64,000 bases of DNA from Solirubrobacterales bacterium. GTDB lineage: Bacteria > Bacillota > Syntrophomonadia > Syntrophomonadales > DTU052. The notes under the pieces are model-generated. The model was given only the letters and a program-made list of their open reading frames with translations. It did not search any database and was not told the origin of the DNA. Shown here in pieces: positions 5,244 to 64,000 of this stretch (positions within the stretch are counted from its first letter, which is position 1; each line of letters begins with the position of its first letter). The translations under genes and the position numbers were made by a program. Where the stretch lies: contig JBLMZI010000005.1 in assembly GCA_050258755.1 (NCBI GenBank), positions 79,534-143,533 on the forward strand. Reading direction: 5' to 3'.

Positions 5244-5318
5244 ACGAAAATAATTTGGACGTACCGGCCCTGTAGACGGTAAAATGGATAAGGATGCTAA
5301 GCTTCGATTGGAGTTTGT

Positions 5319-6347
5319 ATGCAGAAGATCAGTATTGGCAATCTGAAATCAGGGACCAGCCTGGGAAGGGACATTTACTCCAGCACCGGACAGCTTTTGC
5401 TGAGAAAAGGTTCAATGCTGGATGAAAATGTGCTGTCTGCGTTCAAACGCCAGGGCATTGAGCACGTCTTTGTGCTCGACATTCCCCAGCGGCGGACGCA
5501 TGTGCAGGTTCCGTTTAATCAGGGTTACACCGACTCCGTTGATCAAATGAAAAACTTCCTGCTGGAAGCCCAGATTGGTCAGCCCCTTGAGCAGCCCGAG
5601 GTCGACCAGACGGTAAGCCGGCTTTTAAATCTGGTGTACGACGAAGTCGACATTTTCCAGCGGATCAGACAGATGAAAAATACTGACGAATACCTCTATA
5701 CGCATTCCTTAAACGTTTCACTGCTCTGCGTCATGATTGCCCGCTGGCTGAAGTGTCCCCCTAAGATGATCAAAGACATGGGTTTGGCGGGATTGCTTCA
5801 TGATATTGGCAAAGCGAACGTACCGACCGGGATCTTGACTAAACCCGAGCCATTGACGGAAGAGGAATTGCATGAGGTTCAATCACACGCCGTCAAAGGC
5901 TTTGAGATTGCCCAGAAGATCCCGTGGATTTCCAAGGATATTCTGGACGCGGTCCGGCTCCATCACGAACGGCTGGACGGCAGCGGTTATCCCGAAGGGC
6001 TCGAAGGGGATGCAATTCCCTTAATAGCCAGGGTGGTTGCGGTTGCCGATGTTTATGACGCGATCACTTCCGAACGGGTATATGCGGGCAAGATGTCCCC
6101 GTATCAGGCTGCCGAGGTCCTTTGGGACGAGTCATTCGGGCGGCTTGATCCCCGGATAGCCAAGGTGTTCTATGACCGCGCCAGCAATTTCTACATTGGA
6201 AATACGGTGATTCTTTCGAATGGGATGATTGGCAAGGTGGTTTACATTAACCCGACGATGCCCACCCGGCCGGTTGTCGAATCAAACGGTGAATACCATG
6301 ATTTATCCAGGAATCGCACTGTCACCATCACCGAGGTTGTAGACTGA
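5319..6347 (+). CDS. HD-GYP domain phosphodiesterase
   Basis: LLHDIGK and HHERLDGSGYPEGL signatures. Confidence 0.85.
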   Translation: MQKISIGNLKSGTSLGRDIYSSTGQLLLRKGSMLDENVLSAFKRQGIEHVFVLDIPQRRTHVQVPFNQGYTDSVDQMKNFLLEAQIGQPLEQPEVDQTVSRLLNLVYDEVDIFQRIRQMKNTDEYLYTHSLNVSLLCVMIARWLKCPPKMIKDMGLAGLLHDIGKANVPTGILTKPEPLTEEELHEVQSHAVKGFEIAQKIPWISKDILDAVRLHHERLDGSGYPEGLEGDAIPLIARVVAVADVYDAITSERVYAGKMSPYQAAEVLWDESFGRLDPRIAKVFYDRASNFYIGNTVILSNGMIGKVVYINPTMPTRPVVESNGEYHDLSRNRTVTITEVVD

Positions 6348-6362
6348 AGGGGGATTCGTTCG

Positions 6363-6515
6363 ATGACCGTTTCGACCAAAGTGATTCTGCTTACCCTGTT
6401 GGCGGCTTTTGTTCTCTTTATTGTGGCAATTCTTGTTGGAATGAGGGGATCCAAGCCCGGGCTTTCAGACGAAGAAGACGATGACGATATTCCATGGGGT
6501 GACGGGGAAGCATGA
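6363..6515 (+). CDS. Small membrane protein (50 aa), hypothetical
   Basis: Not in the ORF track (under 60 aa). MTVSTKVILLTLLAAFVLFIVAILVG then an acidic tail. Its stop overlaps the next ATG (ATGA at 6512..6515), suggesting translational coupling. Confidence 0.45.
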   Translation: MTVSTKVILLTLLAAFVLFIVAILVGMRGSKPGLSDEEDDDDIPWGDGEA

Positions 6516-6919
6516 AACTGAACGAAGGCAAAAACAACTGGGAACACTTTGCGAATGGCGGTGTTTCCAAAGCACGGCTCGAGTATGACGGAACAGAATT
6601 ATTCCGGCTCCGGTTCATCAATACCCAAAAAGCGGACGAATGCGAAGTTGGACTGGACTGGATCGAGGAAATCAAGTCATTTCGGAACGTTGTGGAAACC
6701 GCGCTGCAGAACCGGCAGGGGAGCATCAAGGTCTATCCTGATGATTACCGGGGCTTGATGATTCGCGTGGCCTGGCAATCTGACGAAGTGGAGCTGAACT
6801 TCTTAAAAGGCTTTGCCACGGTGCGGGTCATTTTGCCGGCGAATCATGGTGAGCAGATCTTGCTGGCAGCGGCTCAGCTGCTGCAAAAACCCGGTACAAT
6901 GGAGATTCAATTTAAATAG
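6512..6919 (+). CDS. Hypothetical protein (135 aa)
   Basis: Clean ORF followed by a strong terminator. No family recognised. Confidence 0.6.
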   Translation: MKLNEGKNNWEHFANGGVSKARLEYDGTELFRLRFINTQKADECEVGLDWIEEIKSFRNVVETALQNRQGSIKVYPDDYRGLMIRVAWQSDEVELNFLKGFATVRVILPANHGEQILLAAAQLLQKPGTMEIQFK

Positions 6920-47079: not shown

Positions 47080-49848
47080 ATGCAGTTTTTCAAACGCAGT
47101 CTGACAACCCGTTTGGTCGTGTCATTCTTGCTCCTTTCAGCGTTCACGGTGAGCGCGGCTGGGGGCATTGCCTATGCGCTTGCGCTCAAAGCGCTGAAGA
47201 ACAATATTTACGCCCGCCTGGAAGAAGCCTCCCAGCACAAGGTAGATGGCATCACGCAGTGGATCGGCGAGCAGCGGTCTCAGGTGGTTTTTATTTCCAG
47301 GATGGACGCGGTGAATGATCAAGCGCGGGTTTTAAACCGCGCTGCACCCGGCAGCGCCGAATACCGAAAGGCCGAACAGGGGCTGCGCAACCTCTTTGCG
47401 GCCGCAAACAGCAGCAACCCTTCTTTTTCCGAGGTCTTTTTACTTTCCGACATTGGGGGCAAAGTCCTTCTGTCCTCCAACCCAACCAATGAGGGGACAT
47501 ACCGGATCAACGACACGTATTATGTCATGGGACGGAAACGCACCTATGTCCAGCCGATCTATCCCTCACCGGTCACCCTGCAGCCGACTATGACCATCGC
47601 AACCCCATTAAGTGATGCCATGACCACCCCACAGAGTGAAGCCCGAGGGCAAATCCGGGGTGTTATCGCGGTACACCTGAATCTGCGGATCATGGACAAT
47701 CTGGTCTGGAGTCACTCCGGACTGGGCAATACCGGACGCGCATATCTGGTCGAAAGGAGTAATATCCTGCTGGACTTCGCCCCGACCGTATCGAACGCCT
47801 ACCGCCGGGGCGTGCATTCTCCGGCGATTGATGCCGCTACCCGGGGACAAAGCGGAAAAGGCGTTTACGTGAACCACCTGCAGCGGGAAGTCATCGGAAG
47901 TTACCGGTGGATTGAGGAAGCGGGCGTCGCACTCATCACGGAAATGGATACCGGCGAAGCACTCGGGCCGGCCCGGGATCTGGCGTGGGCCATCCTGTTA
48001 GCCGGGCTGTTTCTGGTTGGCCTGATGGCGGTCGGATTCATGATGATGTCCCGCCGAATTGCCGGACCGATTCTGGCTATCAAAGAAAGCGCGCTCCAGG
48101 TGGCGGCCGGAAACTGGGATGCCCAGGCGCCGGTTGTGTCCGAAGACGAGGTTGGCACCCTGGCCCGGGCTTTTAATCAGATGGTTCTCCAACTGAATCG
48201 ATACCAGGAGATCCTCAGCGCCAGTGAAGCTTATTTTCGGGCACTGATTGAAAACGGTTATGATATTACGCTGGTGATTAACTTGAACGGGAAGACGCAG
48301 TACTGCAGCCCGGCTGTGAAACGGGTGCTTGGTTATGACCCCGAGGAAATGCTGGAACGCTCGCCGCTGGAACTGGTTCACCCGGAGGATCGCGAACGAT
48401 TGGTGCACTCAATGACCCATCCGACGGAAGGAAACCGTTTTATTGAGTTCCGCATGCAGCATGCGGACGGGAGCTGGCGGGCGCTGGAAGGGGCCGGAAA
48501 CGCATTTGAGGCGGGCGGTGTGGTCGGATATGTGATTAACTCACGCGACATCACCATTCGAAAGCAGGCTTTATCGGCGTTGGCTGTTTCGGAAGAGAAG
48601 TTTTCCAAGGCGTTTCATTACGCGGCCGATATTGTCTGCGTGGTGCGCATGGAAGACCAGCATATTATTGAGGTCAGCGACGCTTTCTTTAATCTTCTGG
48701 GCTATCAGCCGGAAGAGGTGCTGAACCACTCGTCGGAAGAATTCCATCTCTGGGTCGACCCGGAACAGCGGCAGGCGATTTACGAGCAGCTTGGCCGCTA
48801 TGAGGCCATTCGGAATGTGGAAGCCCTGTGGCGGACGAAGAGCGGCATGGTACTCACCGGGGTGGTTTCCGCCGAACTCGTCGATATTGGGGACGAGCCG
48901 TGCCAGATCATTGCCTGGCATGATATCACGGAACAGAAGCAGGCTCAAGATGCCCTGCAGCAGGCCAACGATGAACTGGAAATGAAGGTTCAGCTCAGGA
49001 CCGAGGATCTGCTGGCGATGAATCAGGAGCTTCAGGCCATGAATGAAGAACTGATGAATACCCTGGAAACGCTCCGCAACACCCAGATGCAGCTGGTTCA
49101 ATCCGAGAAAATGGCAGCCCTTGGGAACTTAGTGGCCGGGGTTGCGCATGAAATCAACACCCCGGTTGGGATTGCCGTTACCGCGATCACCAACCTGGAA
49201 AAGCTGTCCGGTACGTTTCAGGACCGATACTCCACCAAAAACGCCACCCGGCAGGAATTGGAAAGCTTCCTGCGAGACTGCGAAACAGCGGTGTCCATTA
49301 TCAAGCCGAACCTGGAACGGTCTTCCCGGCTAATCCAGAGTTTCAAGCAGGTGTCAGTCGACCAATCCAATGAAACCAAGCGGGTTTTCAGGATGCGGGA
49401 ATATCTGGACGAAATCCTGACCAGCCTGCATCCGCTGCTTCGGAAAACGAGAATTTCGGTCAAGGTGGAGTCGGATGAGATCACCATTGATTCGTATCCG
49501 GGCGATTACGCGCAGATTATCACCAATCTGATCACCAATTCGCTGACCCATGCTTTTGATCTGGGGGCGGAAGGCATGATCAATATTGAGGTGCGGCAGT
49601 ATGGTCAGCGCATCCGGATCATCTATGCCGACAATGGCAGGGGAATGGTGCCGGAGGTGATGAACCGCATTTTTGAGCCGTTCTTCACCACCCGGCGCGG
49701 AACCGGCGGCACCGGCCTTGGCATGCACATCGTGTACAATCTGGTTACCCTGCGTCTGGGCGGATCCATTGACTGTGAAAGCCTGCCGGGGCAGGGAGCC
49801 AAGTTTATCATTTGGCTGCCGATTGAAGAGGAATTGGTTTCCGTTTAA
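47080..49848 (+). CDS. Membrane sensor histidine kinase (extracytoplasmic Cache-like domain, HAMP, two PAS, kinase core)
   Basis: Two TMs flank a ~270-aa loop. HAMP (EDEVGTLARAFNQM), PAS regions, H-box AGVAHEINTPVG, ATPase GGTGLGMHIV. Confidence 0.85.
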   Translation: MQFFKRSLTTRLVVSFLLLSAFTVSAAGGIAYALALKALKNNIYARLEEASQHKVDGITQWIGEQRSQVVFISRMDAVNDQARVLNRAAPGSAEYRKAEQGLRNLFAAANSSNPSFSEVFLLSDIGGKVLLSSNPTNEGTYRINDTYYVMGRKRTYVQPIYPSPVTLQPTMTIATPLSDAMTTPQSEARGQIRGVIAVHLNLRIMDNLVWSHSGLGNTGRAYLVERSNILLDFAPTVSNAYRRGVHSPAIDAATRGQSGKGVYVNHLQREVIGSYRWIEEAGVALITEMDTGEALGPARDLAWAILLAGLFLVGLMAVGFMMMSRRIAGPILAIKESALQVAAGNWDAQAPVVSEDEVGTLARAFNQMVLQLNRYQEILSASEAYFRALIENGYDITLVINLNGKTQYCSPAVKRVLGYDPEEMLERSPLELVHPEDRERLVHSMTHPTEGNRFIEFRMQHADGSWRALEGAGNAFEAGGVVGYVINSRDITIRKQALSALAVSEEKFSKAFHYAADIVCVVRMEDQHIIEVSDAFFNLLGYQPEEVLNHSSEEFHLWVDPEQRQAIYEQLGRYEAIRNVEALWRTKSGMVLTGVVSAELVDIGDEPCQIIAWHDITEQKQAQDALQQANDELEMKVQLRTEDLLAMNQELQAMNEELMNTLETLRNTQMQLVQSEKMAALGNLVAGVAHEINTPVGIAVTAITNLEKLSGTFQDRYSTKNATRQELESFLRDCETAVSIIKPNLERSSRLIQSFKQVSVDQSNETKRVFRMREYLDEILTSLHPLLRKTRISVKVESDEITIDSYPGDYAQIITNLITNSLTHAFDLGAEGMINIEVRQYGQRIRIIYADNGRGMVPEVMNRIFEPFFTTRRGTGGTGLGMHIVYNLVTLRLGGSIDCESLPGQGAKFIIWLPIEEELVSV

Positions 49849-55248: not shown

Positions 55249-57936
55249 CTAATGGCGGGAGACTTTTTTTGAATGTCTGCTTTTTGCCGACTTACCGGAT
55301 TCCTTTACGTGATCGACGCCCGCTCGTGACCGGAGTGGATTAAAATCCATCCATTTCCACCAGCCAAGCTGAAGAACCACAAAAACAGCCAACCAGACCC
55401 ATTCCCAGACAATCGCGCGGCCAAAGACGTTTGGAAGATGTTCATTCAAATCGCTTAATACCGCGTAAAAACCGCCAAAAGCCAGAAGCGGAAAGACTAC
55501 GGCTGATACTGTATCCATGGTTTTGGCAAAACTGGCCTGGTTGAACTCGTCAAAGGCGGTGATCTGTTCTGACACCTCTTCGTAGATGATCTGGTTTTCA
55601 AAAATATCCTGCCATCGGCGGAAGAGTTCCATCCCGTTTTCATCGTTCGTAATCTGGCTGAACCAGCTTCTGATAGTGAATTCCAGGAAGGACTCGCGAA
55701 GCACGCTGACCATGGCCCCAGCTGATTTGTTATCCTTGCTGTGCACGGACAGCTCTGACGCCATGCCCAGAAGAATGTGCCGCTGATGCAGGGCCAGCAG
55801 GGCGATGATAAAGCCTAAATCCCAGTAAACGCTTCCAGTTAACGTTTGTTGCGCGAATCGCGCATTGTCCCTTGCTGATACCAGGCCCGCGCCGTTTTTA
55901 CTGATGCAGTATGTGATCAGGGGATTTTCTTTAAAGAGCATCTTGCCCGCGAGATCGTCATTGGCCCCAATCGGCAGCTTTTCATGCCAGTCTTTATGGG
56001 ACGCCAGTTTTAAAGCGACTTCGTGGACCCGCTTCTGGTGCAGGCTGTTTGGAACCATGTTGATGGCGCTGTAAATAAAGTGATCCAGGCTGGTCATCGA
56101 GACGATCTGGCTTTTGCCAGCCGCCTCCTGGATCAGCCGAACAAAGACTTCTTTCATGTCCCGAATTCTGCGGTTGAAAGCACTCAGCTGCTCGATCGTG
56201 ATCCAGTTTGCAGGATCGCTGTTTGAGAACGGTGCGGTCTGAACAAATGGCAAATCGGAGCGGTACCCATTGCCGAGTTCGACTTCGATGACAAAGAATC
56301 CGACACCGTATCGAAACAATCCGATATATGCGTCTTTGATCCGCGCTCTGAGGCTTCCCAAGAGGGCGTGCTGCCCGTCAATTATCTGAGAACGCATTTC
56401 GTTGATAACTTGCAAAAAGGAATCTTCCGGATCGGAACCAAGCCTGAAAAAGGCGCAATGATCGGCCTTCTCATCAAATAAATAGGTTTGTATATACGAG
56501 AGAAAGAAATTGTCATGATCGTTTAACAGATATTTCGTGTAATTGAGAGCATTGACGAAGTGTTTCTCGAGAGAAGGATAATCCAAGGAGTCAAACGAAA
56601 ACGGGATCACATGCCGCGAGCTGTTGAAATCCAGCACGGGAACGTGAAAACGCTTGCTGATTTCCATGATTTCAGCAATAGGCAGCAGGCTGTAATGGTT
56701 TCCTGGCGCGTCAACGATCGTATAATTCTGGTTCCGGCCGTCGTACCAGGGATCCACATTTGTGCACCACGCATCTTTCGGCCAGCGTGCCTGGGCACGC
56801 GAGCGCCATCGCCCAATGTCAAAGTTACCTTGATCAATGAGCCGTTGTTCCGCTGCCAGTTCTGCGGCTTCCAGCGCTTCGCCGAGGCCAAGGAGGGACG
56901 TTTGGGCGCCTTCTTTCAAGGCAATGACGACGCGGTTCGTTTTCACTTCGTTGCCATTCGGGAGGGTTTGGGGTTTGGTGCCGGGCATAGGAATAAAGGT
57001 GAATTCGAAGCCCCTTCCGGAAGGGCTGCTTTTATCCGACCGGGCCCAATGCTTGTGTAACGAACAGGTCGGCGGTTCGGTGAAGAAGAGCGCGTCCGCT
57101 TCCTCCATCATAACCCCGTTTTCTGTGATTCGGGGCAGACTGACCGTGCGGTCCGGCGCGCTGCGCCGGGCCAAATCATCAGTATAGCGGCTGAAGTCGT
57201 CAGCCAGAAAAGTCATTTCAGCTTCGAAACCAGACAGAGCAACCAATTCGTTGTCATGCAGAACGGTGATATCGTTCGGCAGTTTGTCGTTGTTCTGCTG
57301 ATATCGGCGCTGCTTTTCCACAAATCCGGTTTCCATCGCCTTTATCAGGGCAAGTCCGCGATTCAGGATCAGATGATCAGCCGTATGCCGGTCCGGCGGC
57401 GCGCCGTTCGGATTGGCGTAAATCGTTTCGGCGATCACGCTGGCTATCGCATAAGGGGTCTTTAACTGCGCTCCGTCGAGAATGATCGAACCGGAATCGA
57501 TTCGATCGGCATAGTCGGCAAGGTGTCTGAAGAACGCATTGCGTACTGCGGGTTCCGGCCGCTGCTCAGCGGCGATTTCAGCATCGCTGACCGCGCACAG
57601 CAGATCCCGAAGGATATAGATCGATGCAAAACAGTCAAAATCCGGGAAGGTATGGCAGATGATCGTGAAAACGACCGCTTCACCGCTGCCGGCAGCATCC
57701 AGCGAGACATTGGCCTTTACTTTGTCTGGATGGACCAGAATCATGCCGGCTGTACTTTCGAAATGATGCGGGTCCCCCGATCTGGACGACTTGTGGTGCT
57801 GATCCAGGACACCGTACTCGTCACTGTTGCCGACATCGATGTAGTACCGGTTGCGGGCAGGTTCAAACGGCAGACCCGGCCGAACTGTGGTTCCCTGGGG
57901 GACAAACTGAAACTCAAACCGGGCTGTACGCGCCAT
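55249..57936 (-). CDS. Large hypothetical protein: DHH/MYG1-like N-terminal motifs, long middle region, CorA-like C-terminal two-TM hairpin
   Basis: GGAGGCGG RBS 6 nt before ATG 57936 (ORF opens at 58020). N-terminal motifs YYIDVGNSDEYGVLDQHH, STAGMILVH and ICHTFPDFDCFASIYILRDLL. C-terminal VVFPLLAFGGFYAVLSDLNEHLPNV...IVWEWVWLAVFVVLQLGWWKW parallels the CorA IFxPLTFIxGxYGMNFxxMPEL layout but has no GMN. Confidence 0.7.
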   Translation of the reverse strand: MARTARFEFQFVPQGTTVRPGLPFEPARNRYYIDVGNSDEYGVLDQHHKSSRSGDPHHFESTAGMILVHPDKVKANVSLDAAGSGEAVVFTIICHTFPDFDCFASIYILRDLLCAVSDAEIAAEQRPEPAVRNAFFRHLADYADRIDSGSIILDGAQLKTPYAIASVIAETIYANPNGAPPDRHTADHLILNRGLALIKAMETGFVEKQRRYQQNNDKLPNDITVLHDNELVALSGFEAEMTFLADDFSRYTDDLARRSAPDRTVSLPRITENGVMMEEADALFFTEPPTCSLHKHWARSDKSSPSGRGFEFTFIPMPGTKPQTLPNGNEVKTNRVVIALKEGAQTSLLGLGEALEAAELAAEQRLIDQGNFDIGRWRSRAQARWPKDAWCTNVDPWYDGRNQNYTIVDAPGNHYSLLPIAEIMEISKRFHVPVLDFNSSRHVIPFSFDSLDYPSLEKHFVNALNYTKYLLNDHDNFFLSYIQTYLFDEKADHCAFFRLGSDPEDSFLQVINEMRSQIIDGQHALLGSLRARIKDAYIGLFRYGVGFFVIEVELGNGYRSDLPFVQTAPFSNSDPANWITIEQLSAFNRRIRDMKEVFVRLIQEAAGKSQIVSMTSLDHFIYSAINMVPNSLHQKRVHEVALKLASHKDWHEKLPIGANDDLAGKMLFKENPLITYCISKNGAGLVSARDNARFAQQTLTGSVYWDLGFIIALLALHQRHILLGMASELSVHSKDNKSAGAMVSVLRESFLEFTIRSWFSQITNDENGMELFRRWQDIFENQIIYEEVSEQITAFDEFNQASFAKTMDTVSAVVFPLLAFGGFYAVLSDLNEHLPNVFGRAIVWEWVWLAVFVVLQLGWWKWMDFNPLRSRAGVDHVKESGKSAKSRHSKKVSRH

Positions 57937-58238
57937 TGATGTCCGCCTCCAAGCTAACGTGATTACGAATCCATACAAAGACGGTGCTAGCGGGGAAGCC
58001 GATGCTTCGCCGTAACCCATAAAGTATTTCGGCTATTAAGAGCATTTTCCTGCTCCCTGGATGAATTGACCTTGGGGGAGAATTCGACGAATGCTTTGCG
58101 GGATTCCGACACAAAAGCCGCTAATCTATCAAAAAAGGAGATAATTTGACCCATATGGCAGGAACTCGTTGGTGCAAGTGGAATATCACTCTTGGGTAAT
58201 CTCAAGGGATATTTCGATGGACCAACAGGAGGCGTTCT

Positions 58239-61200
58239 ATGTTCACGAACAATAATGGCTTAAAGGAATTTGATCTGATCTCCAAAGAACGCAGAAACAA
58301 CGAGGATCAGGACTACATCAATCTGCCTGAGGTGGTTTACGCAAAATCCCTTGAAGCCTATAACAGATATGAGAAAACCGGTGAACTGCCAGAGTACAAC
58401 TGGAACAGCACCTTCCTGAAACAGATCGGCAGGACCTACGGCGAAAAGCTGGTTGATTTCAAACTGCTGAGTTTTGTTGAGTTTACGCTGTACAAAGATA
58501 CGTATAAATCACAGAACTTTGTTGTGTTGAAAGACAATGAAACCAACCGGGTCTTTGATGCCGAAGGACAATTCATCTTACCGCGCTACCAATATGATTT
58601 TCCCGTCGACAAGGAGCATTCGAAGAAACTTTTAAATATTCTGCTCGATTACTTATATCAGACGCGATTCAAGCTGGAAAGCCATACACATTTTATTGAT
58701 ACCGGGGAACAGGTCGGGCACAGCAGTTATCAAGACGTGGATTCCTATACCAAGGCATTGCTGAAAAACTTCATGCAGGACTACGCGTTAAATAACAACG
58801 CCTATGGATTTGCCGGCTACCCAGCCATTCACTTTGCCGTTACCAGGGACGTTGTCATCATGATCGCCTTTAAGCCGATGAATAGTTTCTTTGTGGATGA
58901 CAGTATCGACGAACTCGAGAATATTTTTGATATCAGCATTGGTTTTTTTGCGAATACCCGCAAGATCTATAACTTTGAATATAAGAACCTGCTGAATCAA
59001 TACCGAGCCTATTCAATGTTTATCTACAAAAACGAGTTGGAGAGAAGTATCCGCGACTCCATTGGCGAGGCATCGTTGATTTCAAGATATTGGTACACTG
59101 AGGGTTTGCAGAAGGTAACGGAAAAGCAGGAGAAAACCAATCACGCCACCGACTCGTTTGATTTCTCGCAGATTTTCGTGAACGAGATTCTGAACGCACA
59201 GATTGACGGGGTGGAGAACATTGAGATATACCCGTTTGACCGGTGTTTCATTTTCAAAGATTCGGCGCTGATCAAGGCCGATCAAAACGATGAGGAAGAT
59301 GTGAAGCTGGTTACCTGCGAAACCTTGTTGATGAAGAAGAGTATTTCGGAGATCGAGAGCATCAAGCAGCGCAATAATTACGTGTATGAGTGGGACCGGC
59401 TGTTGTACGACATCAAGGACTATGACATTGATTACAGCAAAAAAAATGTCGAGTTCAGCGACTGGAGAATCGAATACAAAGATCGGCTTCAGTTCGAACA
59501 CAATTTAACCGAATCGTATTCCGGGCTTAAAGACGATCCGGCGAAAGCCATCGATTTCATGCTTTACAATCTGATCTGTAAAAAGGCCAGCACCAAACAG
59601 CTGCTCGAACTGGAAAAGGAATGTTTCAGCAATGATGACGGCTTGTGTTACATCTACCTCAAAAACGTGGATTTGAACACCATGCAGATGTTGACCGCTC
59701 TGCAGGAAAAATATTTGCGGGAAATTTACAAAGATGTGAAGCAGATGGAGGAGTTTCTCAGCCAGGTCGACACGAAAAACGCCAAAGTCGTTTTTGTTTC
59801 ATATGACCCGAGCAGGGTTAAGTCGGAAAACAATATTAAGATCGAGCAGAAACACGCATTCAGTATTTTGATTGTGGTCGACGCGGACATTCAAAAGAGT
59901 GTAATGGAAATTCAGTCCGAAAAAGAAGATTTAAAAACCGCGGTGAAACTGATTGTCCGGCAAAAAACCGAAGCCGCCGAGCTGGTCAAAATGGAACGTG
60001 AGAAGCAGAAAAGCTTCATTTTAAACCAACTCAAATCGACTTTGCACAGTATCAAGGGCAGAGTGCACGACATGAAGGCAAAACAGGAATTGGATCAGAT
60101 GCTGCGCGATTTCAGCCAAAAGCTGAAGGAAGATACCCTTGAACTGAAAACGACCTTGGTCAATCAAAGCACCCCGCAAGAGCGTTTTAAATGCCTGTTC
60201 CGCGAGATTACCGGCGACATGTTCGAAAGGTCGGGCGGCAGGTTGTGGGATAAAATCGTGCAGGAAATTGCGAACTCGAATGATCCCGCCTTTTTCAATA
60301 CCCGAAGAAGCCTCGAGTGCACAGACCCTTTGGAGTCGGTCGGCATCATTGTCTATGAGAGTTTCCTGCCGGAGTTTAGTATTCTGATGGATAAGATCAC
60401 ACTTCAGGAAGCCTTTCATGTCGTCCTGAAAAACACCGTGGAAGAGGCGAAATCGACCGACGACAAATTCGTGGCCATCCAGTTCAATGTTGGGTATGGC
60501 GACAAGGACCGGGGGGTTCTAAGCATCCAGCTCATCAATTCCTGTCATCCGATTACCGAAGAAAGGCTGCAGGAGATGAATACGGCGGTCGAAGAAGTCT
60601 CAATCAACGAAAACAAAGAGGGTTCAACCGGCTTTGGCGTGGCTTCGTCCCGAGCCCAGCTCACCAGCCGTTTCGGAGCAGAGGCCTCGATCAAGTACCG
60701 CCTGCTGACCAAAAACCAGATTAGCACAACCTTGACGATGCCCATTGTCTTCCTACAGAATGACACGATTTTCGGGGACGGGCGGGTTGCCCACGAGGTA
60801 AAAGAAAGCTGCAAAGTCGTTTACCTTGAAGATGAGAAAACATACTATCAGGAATCCTGCGCGTATTTGGACGGGATGATCAAAGGGCATTACCGCCATA
60901 CCACCACGGCGAACCTGTTTGAGGAATACTGGAAAAAGGCCGATATTCTCTTTACCGATATTAGCGTGCCCAACAAGGAAGGGGGTAAGGCGTCTCCAAC
61001 GTTCGGACTCAGCGCAATCAACAACTTCTTCCGATTGGGTCAGGGCAAAACCATTTTCGTGCTGTCCAACAGCGAGTCCCAGGGGATTAAAGAGGATATC
61101 CTCACGCGGAGCGGCTTAACCAGCGGCAGTATTACGGAGCAGGATATCCTGCTTGATCTAAATGAGATTAAAAAAGGGAAAATCTACGTCGCGGATAATG

Positions 61201-61985
61201 TGAAATCGATTAAGACCCTGATGGAGAACCATCCGGCGGTGATCGATTTTCTCAAGCAGCATTTTGGGATTGACGACGACGGTGAGGCGGAGCCAGTGCC
61301 GGATGACAGCGGCCAAGCGGAGGCGTATACTATCGAGTCAGCCGAAAGCTTTGAACAAATCCTGGAAACCATCTCGATGGACACGCTGGCAAGTCGGTAT
61401 GTTCTGCGAGATGTAACGAATGATCAGCTGCCGGAAGTCTTTCGAAGGTGGACCACTAAAATGATTTACCTTCCGGATATTGAGGACCAGGAGTGCCTTT
61501 CGAATCCGGATTTGGTGGATACGCTGCTGTTTATCCAATTGAGTGACTGCTCGGCGTTTAATGTCATGGACTCCACGCTGTTCGGTTTGAAAAACAACGT
61601 CGTTTTCGTACCGTCTGCCTACTCCAATACCCAGCAAGCCTGCCTTGAGATTGCCCGGCAGTATCAGGAGCGCATCAGTCTGACCAGCAGTGGGATTTTG
61701 TCAGCCCTGAACCATGATTTGGCGAAGTATGAAGATCCGGCCGTCAAAATGATTCGGGAAAAAATCATCAGCAGCAAAGCCTACACTGTCGCAAAGACCT
61801 ATAAAATCGATTCGCTGATATTGGCCGAACCGAAAGCCGATTTAGACGAACTGCGTTATATCCAGGACATTAAGCAGGAATTAGAGATCTATGCCCGGGA
61901 AACGAAAGACCAAATCCTGCTGAAACATGTTGAGAACCTAACCTTCTGCCTGACGCTTTGCCAGGCCATGGCTGGAGGTGAGTAA
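58239..61985 (+). CDS. Giant soluble histidine-kinase-like / receiver hybrid protein with unknown N- and C-terminal domains
   Basis: ACAGGAGG RBS. 1248 aa, no TM. Coiled-coil then LKSTLHSIKGRVH (His603, nt 60045). N-box-like HVVLKNTVEEA. G2-like EGSTGFGVASS. Receiver VVYLEDE...ADILFTDISVP (Asp907, nt 60957)...FVLSNS...VADNVKS. A ~240-aa C-terminal region includes ILSALNHDLAKY. Confidence 0.75.
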   Translation: MFTNNNGLKEFDLISKERRNNEDQDYINLPEVVYAKSLEAYNRYEKTGELPEYNWNSTFLKQIGRTYGEKLVDFKLLSFVEFTLYKDTYKSQNFVVLKDNETNRVFDAEGQFILPRYQYDFPVDKEHSKKLLNILLDYLYQTRFKLESHTHFIDTGEQVGHSSYQDVDSYTKALLKNFMQDYALNNNAYGFAGYPAIHFAVTRDVVIMIAFKPMNSFFVDDSIDELENIFDISIGFFANTRKIYNFEYKNLLNQYRAYSMFIYKNELERSIRDSIGEASLISRYWYTEGLQKVTEKQEKTNHATDSFDFSQIFVNEILNAQIDGVENIEIYPFDRCFIFKDSALIKADQNDEEDVKLVTCETLLMKKSISEIESIKQRNNYVYEWDRLLYDIKDYDIDYSKKNVEFSDWRIEYKDRLQFEHNLTESYSGLKDDPAKAIDFMLYNLICKKASTKQLLELEKECFSNDDGLCYIYLKNVDLNTMQMLTALQEKYLREIYKDVKQMEEFLSQVDTKNAKVVFVSYDPSRVKSENNIKIEQKHAFSILIVVDADIQKSVMEIQSEKEDLKTAVKLIVRQKTEAAELVKMEREKQKSFILNQLKSTLHSIKGRVHDMKAKQELDQMLRDFSQKLKEDTLELKTTLVNQSTPQERFKCLFREITGDMFERSGGRLWDKIVQEIANSNDPAFFNTRRSLECTDPLESVGIIVYESFLPEFSILMDKITLQEAFHVVLKNTVEEAKSTDDKFVAIQFNVGYGDKDRGVLSIQLINSCHPITEERLQEMNTAVEEVSINENKEGSTGFGVASSRAQLTSRFGAEASIKYRLLTKNQISTTLTMPIVFLQNDTIFGDGRVAHEVKESCKVVYLEDEKTYYQESCAYLDGMIKGHYRHTTTANLFEEYWKKADILFTDISVPNKEGGKASPTFGLSAINNFFRLGQGKTIFVLSNSESQGIKEDILTRSGLTSGSITEQDILLDLNEIKKGKIYVADNVKSIKTLMENHPAVIDFLKQHFGIDDDGEAEPVPDDSGQAEAYTIESAESFEQILETISMDTLASRYVLRDVTNDQLPEVFRRWTTKMIYLPDIEDQECLSNPDLVDTLLFIQLSDCSAFNVMDSTLFGLKNNVVFVPSAYSNTQQACLEIARQYQERISLTSSGILSALNHDLAKYEDPAVKMIREKIISSKAYTVAKTYKIDSLILAEPKADLDELRYIQDIKQELEIYARETKDQILLKHVENLTFCLTLCQAMAGGE

Positions 61986-61986
61986 G

Positions 61987-64000
61987 ATGCAGCGATCGTC
62001 ATATAAGAAAGCGGAAATCGTCTGGATCGATGACGTCTTCGGCCTTGAGGAAATGACCCGCCGCCTGGATTCCGGCATCAATTTCTGGGAAGAGATGTTC
62101 GGCGCTCCGGAAAAAATCTACCGCCTGATGAACATAAAAATCAAACTGATCACCAATTACAGCGATGCGATCAGCTACATCAACTCCTTGTCCCAAAATC
62201 GTTCAACGTATTACTATTTCATCGTCGACTTGACCCTCCCTAAAAACCTCGATGATTTACGAAAGAAGGAAGCCTATCCGTCCTACGGCAAAAAGATTGG
62301 CAAAAAACTTGTGGACAAGGGTTTCGCGTTTTCATTTCTGACCAGCGCCAGCGAATTGGGATCACTCCGGGCTGAAGAAAAGGATCTGTTACTGGCCGAT
62401 TTTCACATCAAGGAATACCACAAAAGCCTATCCCTGCCGGATTCTCTGAAAAACAAATTATTGTTCCACCTGCAGTCACATATCAACTGGATCAACATCA
62501 AAGAGAATTTTTTCACCAAAATCAGTGAATCGTCTAACATCAGCAATAACCAGGAAGAGGCTTTTGAGTACTTCCCGTATCTCGACGCATACAAGGATTT
62601 TGTTAATATTGCCGAATTCAACGAGTTGGACTTGAGCCATCCGATCTTTATCAAGAGCCATCTCTTCAACAACAAATACTATGAGCAGCAGTGCGTGCTT
62701 CTGCTGTTGTCCGAAACGTTCCATGTCAACCGGTACCGGAAACTGGACGTGCATTATATCGACTTATCGTTAAGCGATCCCGGTGAAAGCGATATCCGGA
62801 TGAACGAGTTCTATGCCCAATTCAAGGACAAAATTGACAAAGACGTCATCTGGATCATCAAGCTGGCCTTGCTCGACAAGAAACACTTCAAGCAGCTGCA
62901 GGAAACGCTGAGAAACCAGAAATGCATTTTCATCGTGAACGACGAAGAATATGAAAGCTATCTTGAACAGGTGAACTCCAGCTACGGACTGTCCGAGCTG
63001 CCGTACTTCAAAGACGATGACTACATCCAGAAAAAGAACCTGCTGGACCACATTCTTAACCTAAAAATCGAGGAAAAACTGGCCGACCGTGAGATTGAGG
63101 TCGCGTCCATTTACCAGGAGCACCCGGAACTGCTGATGGATGTTCAGGCTTATATCGCCTTAATCAATCCCGCATTCGGGATTCAGGAGCTGTCAGACTC
63201 GTATGAAATGGTCGAGTGGGTGGTCAAGCTGTTTAATCGGCTCGAGAAAGAGATCGTGGTCAACATGGTCCACAACCGGCCGATTTCCTATGACAAACTG
63301 ATCGGGAAAGAAATCCTGGAAAATTTGCAGAAGGCGCATTTGCAGCGGATAAAGGAAGAAAGCGCGGCTTACTGGCTGAAGACGTCCTGGGGTTTTCCGC
63401 ATGGGGTCTCGATTGATAAATACGGGCTTTCAACCGAGGCGAATGATGCGTGGGAAATGAACTCGCTGCGGATTTTATCCCATCTGCTGACTGATCTGGA
63501 CGGTACCCGGAATGAGACCCTGCGCAACCTGAAAGAGATTTTCCGCCATGAATACATTCGGACGATTGTCGATGAAAAGGACCGCCGGAAAGTCTCCAAA
63601 GAGGTCGACACCATGATCAAATGGCCGCACCGTGAATACCCGATGCCGTCGATCCTGCATAAGAAGTTTGAAGAAGACAATAAACACCTGTGGTTTAACC
63701 ATACCAAGCTGAACTATGTGAGCTACTCCCGGAAACTATCGCTGTATTTCCGTCAGCTCGACCTTTACCTGGACTATTACGACATTGTCCTGGAGTTCAT
63801 CCACAATACCTACCAGATGCTCCCCAGGATTTCACATCGGTTTATTGAAATGGCGCTTGGCGACATCACTGAGAAGAAGTTCTCCGCGAAAGACAGTGAG
63901 TTCAAGGAGGAGTTCAAGAAATACCTGTACGGCATGCTGAGTATCTCTCTGATTTTTACCGAAATAATCGAGAAAAACGAAATATCGGATATCGAGTTTT
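61987..64000 (+). CDS. Receiver-domain protein with large unknown output region (partial, continues beyond the window)
   Basis: Not in the ORF track because it has no stop. I translated it by hand: 671 codons with no stop. ATG lies 1 nt after the upstream TAA. N-terminus EIVWIDDV...YYYFIVDLTLP (Asp81, nt 62227)...FSFLTSAS...FHIKEY is a complete receiver signature. The rest has no recognised motifs. Confidence 0.7.
   Translation, partial: MQRSSYKKAEIVWIDDVFGLEEMTRRLDSGINFWEEMFGAPEKIYRLMNIKIKLITNYSDAISYINSLSQNRSTYYYFIVDLTLPKNLDDLRKKEAYPSYGKKIGKKLVDKGFAFSFLTSASELGSLRAEEKDLLLADFHIKEYHKSLSLPDSLKNKLLFHLQSHINWINIKENFFTKISESSNISNNQEEAFEYFPYLDAYKDFVNIAEFNELDLSHPIFIKSHLFNNKYYEQQCVLLLLSETFHVNRYRKLDVHYIDLSLSDPGESDIRMNEFYAQFKDKIDKDVIWIIKLALLDKKHFKQLQETLRNQKCIFIVNDEEYESYLEQVNSSYGLSELPYFKDDDYIQKKNLLDHILNLKIEEKLADREIEVASIYQEHPELLMDVQAYIALINPAFGIQELSDSYEMVEWVVKLFNRLEKEIVVNMVHNRPISYDKLIGKEILENLQKAHLQRIKEESAAYWLKTSWGFPHGVSIDKYGLSTEANDAWEMNSLRILSHLLTDLDGTRNETLRNLKEIFRHEYIRTIVDEKDRRKVSKEVDTMIKWPHREYPMPSILHKKFEEDNKHLWFNHTKLNYVSYSRKLSLYFRQLDLYLDYYDIVLEFIHNTYQMLPRISHRFIEMALGDITEKKFSAKDSEFKEEFKKYLYGMLSISLIFTEIIEKNEISDIEF

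Follow-up and report, generated by a model that had tools for sequence, protein, structure and literature searches.

A Divergent Receiver Protein and a Hybrid Histidine Kinase as the Predicted Core of a Rare Cassette with Exchangeable Effector-Type Genes

Near the end of a 64,000-nucleotide stretch of a Solirubrobacterales bacterium assembly (GCA_050258755.1, 3.41 Mb in 12 contigs; contig JBLMZI010000005.1, here C5, positions 79534 to 143533), which we call the window, lies a gene encoding a divergent receiver domain fused to a long output region. This gene, B, directly follows gene A, a predicted soluble hybrid histidine kinase, and comparison of homologous loci indicates that the A-B pair is the core of a rare, horizontally moving cassette with exchangeable effector-type genes. 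The role to which we assign about half of our confidence is that B acts as a phospho-switched adaptor, linking kinase A to swappable effectors in a defense- or conflict-type system. A phosphorelay pair is already known as a kind; what is new is the output architecture of B and its wiring to CorA-like, radical S-adenosylmethionine (SAM), and STAND proteins, and no description of the A-B cassette was found in the searched literature.

The original prediction, made from the window sequence, had described B as an uninterrupted frame of 671 codons truncated by the window edge. The list of open reading frames bears this out, with the plus-strand frame open from ATG 61987 past the window end and 671 codons inside it. 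Extension to the stop codon, a check the prediction had proposed, was run on the contig and gave a 922-residue protein, with 922 codons from the ATG and a stop at window-equivalent positions 64753 to 64755. An alternative start, GTG 61978, would yield 925 residues, but the Shine-Dalgarno sequence GGAGG, 8 nucleotides before ATG 61987, marks this ATG as the likely start. The protein on record (P0005) is identical to B, at 922 amino acids beginning at the same ATG. The position of this Shine-Dalgarno sequence within the last codons of gene A suggests translational coupling of A and B, and A-B junctions in other loci were likewise overlapping or abutting. The features of B that fall inside the window are as follows.

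61973 to 61977, plus strand: Shine-Dalgarno sequence GGAGG of gene B, within the last codons of gene A (read from the sequence)
62008 to 62481, plus strand: divergent receiver domain (REC), residues 8 to 165, with a long beta1-beta2 segment (AlphaFold2 [AF2] model, hhalign, and a match to PDB 4q7e)
62227 to 62229, plus strand: codon of Asp81, the predicted phospho-acceptor, invariant in 57 members and aligned with the phospho-Asp of bona fide receivers
62644 to 63084, plus strand: domain 2, residues 220 to 366, an alpha/beta core with a predicted AAA+/STAND-like fold and no P-loop (AF2 predicted local distance difference test [pLDDT] 70 to 89, Foldseek, motifs)
63109 to 64000, plus strand: predicted all-helical region, residues 375 to 671 in the window and onward to about residue 880 (AF2 secondary structure)
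63622 to 63648, plus strand: WPHxxYPMP motif, residues 546 to 554, with W and P invariant in 57 sequences, within the most conserved block outside REC

Receiver domains carry an acidic pair after beta1, a phospho-acceptor Asp ending beta3, a Ser or Thr ending beta4, and a Lys ending beta5. The hallmarks first assigned to B, D15, D16, D81, T119, and K142, all stand at those positions. In an alignment of 57 members of the B family (17 to 71% identity to the query), D81, K142, W13, and P85 were invariant, D15 and D16 reached at least 90% conservation, and only Ser or Thr occurred at position 119. The Pfam Response_reg model (PF00072) did not match B at E values up to 10. A genome-wide scan with the same model turned up 83 receivers, B not being among them; the two-component content of the genome is very high for 3.4 Mb, with 79 of the 83 Response_reg matches above the Pfam cutoff and 60 HATPase_c matches.

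Profile-profile comparison recovered the relationship. A reference profile was built from 61 bona fide receivers of the same genome, and when the domain 1 profile of the 57-member B family was aligned to it with hhalign, the two matched over 92 columns (Prob 96.1, E = 3.2e-9) with the D, S/T, and K positions in register. The identification of the N terminus as a receiver is thereby upheld at 96% probability, and domains 2 to 5 of B, used as internal controls against the same reference, each scored below 4%. Searching PDB with a family hidden Markov model of B gave a receiver, 4q7e, as the top match (E = 0.005), again aligning the phospho-Asp, S/T, and Lys in register. In a full-length AF2 model built from a 9-sequence alignment (mean pLDDT 72), strands at residues 8 to 14, 50 to 55, 74 to 81, 114 to 119, and 138 to 141, with helices between them, follow the (beta-alpha)5 pattern, and giant-virus hybrid kinases were among the top viral-library fold matches. 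By these comparisons domain 1 of B is a genuine receiver with a predicted intact phospho-acceptor pocket, too divergent for the Pfam model.

The constant partner of B is the gene immediately upstream.

58239 to 61985, plus strand: gene A, a predicted 1,248-residue soluble hybrid histidine kinase (hhalign, synteny)

Gene A itself had no match in Pfam, and Pfam HATPase_c was sub-threshold in two of its homologues. A profile of 14 A homologues aligned with the kinase profile of the same genome in the HATPase_c region (Prob 96.7, E = 3e-10) and with the REC profile of the same genome at residues 859 to 951 (Prob 95.5, E = 2e-8). The features placed on A are His603 within LHSIKG, a HATPase region at about residues 699 to 816, and an internal REC at residues 859 to 951 with Asp907. 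The motifs LH(S/R)xKG, containing His603, and GSTG(F/I)GV are conserved between the two clades, and these sequence features identify A as a soluble hybrid histidine kinase. About 600 residues at the N terminus and about 290 at the C terminus match nothing, and LHSIKG is nearer to the HxxKG of HPt/CheA-P1 domains than to the classical HisKA H-box. A membrane sensor kinase (dCache, HAMP, PAS, HisKA, and HATPase) encoded at 47080 to 49848, 5 kb upstream of the cassette, was easily found by Pfam, which shows by comparison how divergent A and B are.

In all 20 loci that had sequence upstream of B, a homologue of A lay immediately upstream. These homologues were predicted soluble hybrid kinases of 1,200 to 1,480 residues, and the loci came from Herbivorax, Sulfurimonas, a Planctomycetota metagenome-assembled genome, and assorted metagenomes. 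A word-indexed homologue search had returned only three relatives of B, and it was an exhaustive phmmer search that revealed the family, with 76 representative clusters at 50% identity, mostly of 900 to 1,100 residues. A related-locus search with the alignment of 9 members returned only 3 genome loci, besides 6 metagenome loci. B is single copy in its source genome and was found in 1 of the 125 genomes of its order, and the G+C content of the cassette (0.46 to 0.49) is lower than that of the genome (0.544). Scanning the borders of the cassette for promoters and terminators gave nothing informative.

The remainder of B had been described as a lysine-, glutamate-, and asparagine-rich, helical-looking region that matched nothing nameable. 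The second half of that description held, as B gave nothing usable in Pfam, NCBIfam, and PADLOC and nothing in a phmmer search of PDB sequences. A Pfam scan of 49 relatives of B found no credible domain in any of them. A known response-regulator output family was looked for, since finding one would have made B an ordinary regulator, and no catalogued family matched. The compositional half held in part: Lys, Glu, and Asn are moderately enriched, but Leu is the commonest residue, and the protein is predicted to be all-helical only from about residue 375. B lacks any hydrophobic stretch and is predicted to be soluble, with every segment neutral to acidic.

Between the receiver and the helical region, fold comparison suggested a second domain. 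The segments VHYIDLSLS, IWIIKLA, and CIFIVND had been proposed to form a second, degenerate receiver-like fold; in the AF2 model they are indeed strands (residues 253 to 261, 287 to 294, and 312 to 318) of an alpha/beta domain, but no similarity of this domain to receivers was detected. An origin of domain 2 as a duplicated receiver was rejected, with hhalign probabilities below 1% against both domain 1 and the receiver profile. Foldseek, also proposed in the original prediction for the output region, returned weak AAA+/STAND matches for domain 2. With the full-length model, about 40 of the top 50 PDB matches were AAA+/STAND proteins (weak, E = 6e-4 to 3e-2), including T4 and cellular clamp loaders, ORC, ClpC, CED-4, Avs3, and NLRP3. 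With a model of residues 190 to 671, from which REC had been removed, all 50 of the top 50 matches were AAA+/STAND (ORC4/5, Dark/Apaf-1, Vps4, clamp loaders, Clp/Hsp104, the ATP-less AAA+-like domain of Sir3, DnaA, and NLRPs), at probabilities of 0.8 to 0.99 and TM scores of only 0.2 to 0.35. This shorter model (7-sequence alignment, pLDDT 64 compared to 72 for the full-length model, and below 50 at its residues 152 to 255) was used only for the domain 2 fold search. A search of the viral library with B returned RFC-type clamp loaders besides giant-virus hybrid histidine kinases.

The top 50 Foldseek matches of the model lacking REC all point, weakly, to AAA+/STAND proteins, whose ASCE core and helical lid B may share. 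A regular-expression search of B for Walker A, Walker B, and GAFTGA found none, and across the family the beta1-alpha1 position, where a P-loop would be expected, reads R[SA]xxxxHSDxF, with no P-loop in any member. At the end of beta3, the family reads hhhh[RK], with Arg or Lys replacing the Walker B acids. The positions that the family does conserve in domain 2 are R..HSD..F..Q after beta1 and PNDES after beta4. The alpha/beta and helical module of B therefore appears, weakly but consistently across these models, to resemble AAA+/STAND modules without the ATP-binding loop.

The helical remainder of B, about 550 residues from about residue 375, matches no library, and this includes a further roughly 400 helical residues beyond the AAA+/STAND-like module. 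By per-segment conservation, the best-conserved parts of the protein outside REC are a linker helix, FPYxDxYKDF, and the WPHxxYPMP block.

While A is constant, the genes that follow B or lie beside the pair are not. Two of them in the source genome are of particular concern here.

64752 to 66260 (window-equivalent; 5286 to 6794 of locus L002): gene C, a radical SAM protein, immediately downstream of B
55249 to 58020, minus strand: P0004, in which a DHH-like module is fused to a CRISPR-type CorA-like membrane protein (PADLOC CorA E = 2e-17), divergent neighbor of A

A radical SAM protein of about 490 to 500 residues with a conserved Cx4Cx2C motif is the third gene here and in six other loci of the same clade, B and C adjoining or overlapping in these 7 loci. 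The start of C is probably TTG L002:5304 rather than GTG 5286, as homologues begin at MDVIIDLDLL and GAGGGA lies just upstream; the first 200 or so residues make up a conserved domain that matched no library. Among named organisms, Herbivorax sp. ANBcel31 has the closest relative of B (52% identity), and the third gene there is unrelated to C. That gene (L003, 6891 to 8366) stands in place of the radical SAM gene and encodes a 491-residue protein carrying a P-loop-like sequence, FRGERGTGKTVF (GERGTGKT); Pfam, NCBIfam, and PADLOC all gave no match for it, and the next gene encodes a TPR protein. In the majority clade, loci L019/L028, L020, and L025 have a CRISPR-type CorA-like membrane protein directly after B (PADLOC CorA E = 1e-30, 2e-52, and 3e-44 for L019, L020, and L025, respectively). 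In L018 (11047 to 16280), the stop codon of B is overlapped by a 1,357-residue AAA_16/TPR STAND gene, followed by a 384-residue free-standing homologue of the P0004 DHH-like module (BLASTP E = 1.5e-12). This stand-alone homologue suggests that the DHH-like module travels with A-B even without the CorA part. The radical SAM enzyme was rejected as an obligate third component from the Herbivorax, L015, and L017 to L020 contexts.

Herbivorax has a full-length orthologue of P0004, 7.8 kb away from its A-B pair, and P0004 is a candidate effector of the A-B system. Altogether, CorA-like or DHH-like partners were present in 6 of about 16 distinct loci, in both clades, and CorA or P0004 relatives were looked for beside L008, L013, and L010 and not found. 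Two Sulfurimonas-like loci (L011, 4349 to 5899, and L012, 2416 to 3966) have a 516-residue gene upstream of A with weak CorA-like matches (E = 4e-4 and 1e-3), which may encode a very divergent CorA-type partner; a 78-residue gene likewise lies upstream of A in both. On the flanks of the two-gene core in L017 (11553 to 20545) are a convergent gene for a pentapeptide-repeat TIR protein with ThsB-like PADLOC matches, an RHS-repeat toxin with Imm1, and another TIR_2 gene. Over all loci examined, neighbors included WYL regulators, a pentapeptide-TIR protein, an RHS/Imm1 pair, UvrD-PDDEXK, and ParAB.

That effector-type genes are encoded apart from the kinase-receiver pair and vary by locus favors a role for B as an adaptor or transducer. 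Under such a model, A would sense a cue through its uncharacterized N-terminal 600 residues, autophosphorylate on His603, and pass the phosphoryl group on to Asp81 in B, probably via its own receiver and either directly or by way of an HPt step. Phosphorylation would take the place that nucleotide binding has in AAA+/STAND switches and would alter the assembly state or conformation of an ATPase-dead scaffold, with the helical C-terminal part of B then engaging and activating the co-encoded effector, be it a CorA-like pore, a STAND protein, or the radical SAM enzyme. Defense or conflict, of an abortive-infection type, is the most likely biological role in view of the patchy distribution of the pair, its island-like neighbors, its swappable effectors, and its CRISPR-type CorA partners.

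Several observations weigh against the adaptor model and its assignment to defense. The AAA+/STAND assignment has weak fold matches behind it, at E = 5e-4 to 1e-2 and TM 0.2 to 0.36, and AF2 confidence is moderate (pLDDT 72 and 64) on shallow alignments of 9 and 7 sequences. CorA-like or DHH-like partners are confined to the 6 loci above; L015 and L017 have no same-strand third gene after B, so that either the two-gene core acts alone, with the output carried by B or A, or its partners are distal; and several neighborhoods contain no recognizable defense gene. In PADLOC-DB 2.0, B and C had no match, and A gave only noise (E = 0.026).

The same arrangement could be read with C, rather than an effector class, at its center. 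B might be a substrate-presenting or activating partner of radical SAM enzyme C, much as ArcS is for RaSEA, in a kinase-regulated RNA or nucleotide modification that is stress responsive and not necessarily defensive. C matches TIGR01210 (RaSEA) at E = 2.4e-29, within the range of the C-type proteins as a group (2e-29 to 1e-27, all below the cutoff), keeps Cx4Cx2C, and has a weak Elp3 match in PDB; RaSEA itself works in complex with ArcS (PMC11298593), and the tight B-C junctions of the window's clade would suit a comparable complex. Most of the B family, however, occurs without C, the Herbivorax third gene is unrelated to it, B has no similarity to ArcS, TGT, or PUA domains, and no 7-deazaguanine genes were seen beside the cassette. 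We consider this partnership unlikely.

A different alternative dispenses with separate effectors. The original prediction had suggested that the C-terminal part of B is itself the effector; recognizable effector-type genes turned out to be separate and to vary by locus, which speaks against that suggestion, but the two loci showing only the two-gene core, with no obvious effector, speak for it. In its most specific form, B would be a C-terminal HEPN-like RNase, built on R835-N-K-A-L-E-H841 and conserved acidic residues and switched on by receiver phosphorylation, with the radical SAM and CorA-like proteins as accessories. RNKALEH (R835 to H841) is invariant in the 9 closest homologues of B and resembles the HEPN Rx4-6H motif, being an Rx5H with N after R; conservation of the Arg over the whole family is at least 90%, and that of the C-terminal block is moderate. 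Most members of the family, however, read DLRNxxKD at this position and lack the His. No HEPN or other Pfam match was obtained in any member, no HEPN structure appeared among the fold matches, and local model confidence is low (pLDDT below 50 at residues 839 to 844). B as an RNase of this kind is quite improbable.

Very improbable is an ordinary NtrC- or MalT/LAL-type transcription regulator (receiver, ATPase-like module, and DNA-binding domain) of metabolic neighbors such as the downstream pyruvate formate-lyase operon, since, although the order of a REC and then an AAA+-like module is reminiscent of the NtrC class and pyruvate formate-lyase and its activase do lie 230 bp downstream of C, neither B nor the 49 relatives matched Sigma54_activat, HTH, or LuxR, B has none of the Walker A, Walker B, or GAFTGA motifs, its uniformly neutral to acidic segments are unfavorable for DNA binding, flanking genes differ in every locus with only A constant, and B is absent from the other 124 genomes of the order.

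Returning to B as an adaptor, a bolder extension by analogy, which we regard as doubtful, is that A-B forms the core of a new two-component-driven class of immune or abortive-infection system. In such a class, the kinase would detect infection and phosphorylate the hub, and the hub would fire CorA without Cas10; the window's clade might in addition use a small molecule derived from SAM, which the radical SAM enzyme would make and the CorA-fused DHH-like module would break down. A SAM-using enzyme and a DHH-CorA fusion beside A-B make such a messenger an attractive possibility, but it would not be general, because the loci of the A-B-CorA kind have no radical SAM gene.

Receiver domains usually drive DNA-binding or familiar enzymatic outputs, whereas in B a receiver appears to take over the switch role of nucleotide binding in an AAA+/STAND-type scaffold. 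If the adaptor model is confirmed, His-Asp phosphorelay would join the bacterial triggers of membrane-disrupting immune effectors, orphan CorA-like proteins outside CRISPR loci would gain an upstream activator, and three protein families, each of about 500 to 1,400 residues and now without annotation, would be defined.

Among known systems, the NtrC/DctD class shares with B an N-terminal receiver, followed by an AAA+-fold module of which B has a putative counterpart. In NtrC-type proteins, phosphorylation of the receiver controls assembly of the AAA+ ring, which serves as a working analogy for B. B differs in lacking the Walker A/B motifs, the GAFTGA loop, a sigma-54 activator Pfam match, and a helix-turn-helix, in having a helical extension of about 550 residues, in its giant soluble hybrid kinase partner, and in its status, that of a rare accessory gene and not of a core regulator. 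STAND/NLR proteins (Apaf-1, CED-4, NLRPs, and Avs3/AVAST) are similar in that the fold matches of B span the alpha/beta and helical domains, after which a long helical stretch runs toward the C terminus, and in the conflict-island-like neighborhoods and exchangeable effector modules that surround B. They differ in that B has no nucleotide-binding loop, takes its input through a receiver, and has effectors encoded as separate genes rather than fused, and the matches themselves are weak (E about 1e-3).

In type III CRISPR systems, SAM-AMP opens the CRISPR-associated membrane effector CorA, and the DHH-type NrN degrades SAM-AMP (Chi et al. 2023, PMC10600005; PMC12255297). CorA-like proteins and a DHH-like module recur beside A-B, and the window's cassette contains a SAM-using enzyme, but a kinase-receiver pair replaces the signal generator. 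Searches of the source genome for Cas10 gave only HD-like fragments far below the cutoff with TIGR02578 and nothing with TIGR02577, and the 64-kb window contains no tandem repeat or CRISPR array. The window's cassette resembles the ArcS-RaSEA pair in the tight coupling of a large partner protein to a radical SAM enzyme, C being a member of the RaSEA/Elp3 branch; C is not an orthologue, however (103 bits compared to the 212-bit TIGR01210 cutoff), B is unrelated to ArcS, the setting is bacterial, and most B loci have no C.

A further parallel is Ambrosia, an anti-phage system that has a histidine-kinase-type ATPase and a receiver protein among its integral and required components (bioRxiv 10.1101/2025.09.30.679545). 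The Ambrosia receiver protein has a winged-helix DNA-binding output, thought to control transcription of a restriction-modification-like effector (bioRxiv 10.1101/2025.09.30.679545), and the proteins of the two systems are unrelated in size and sequence.

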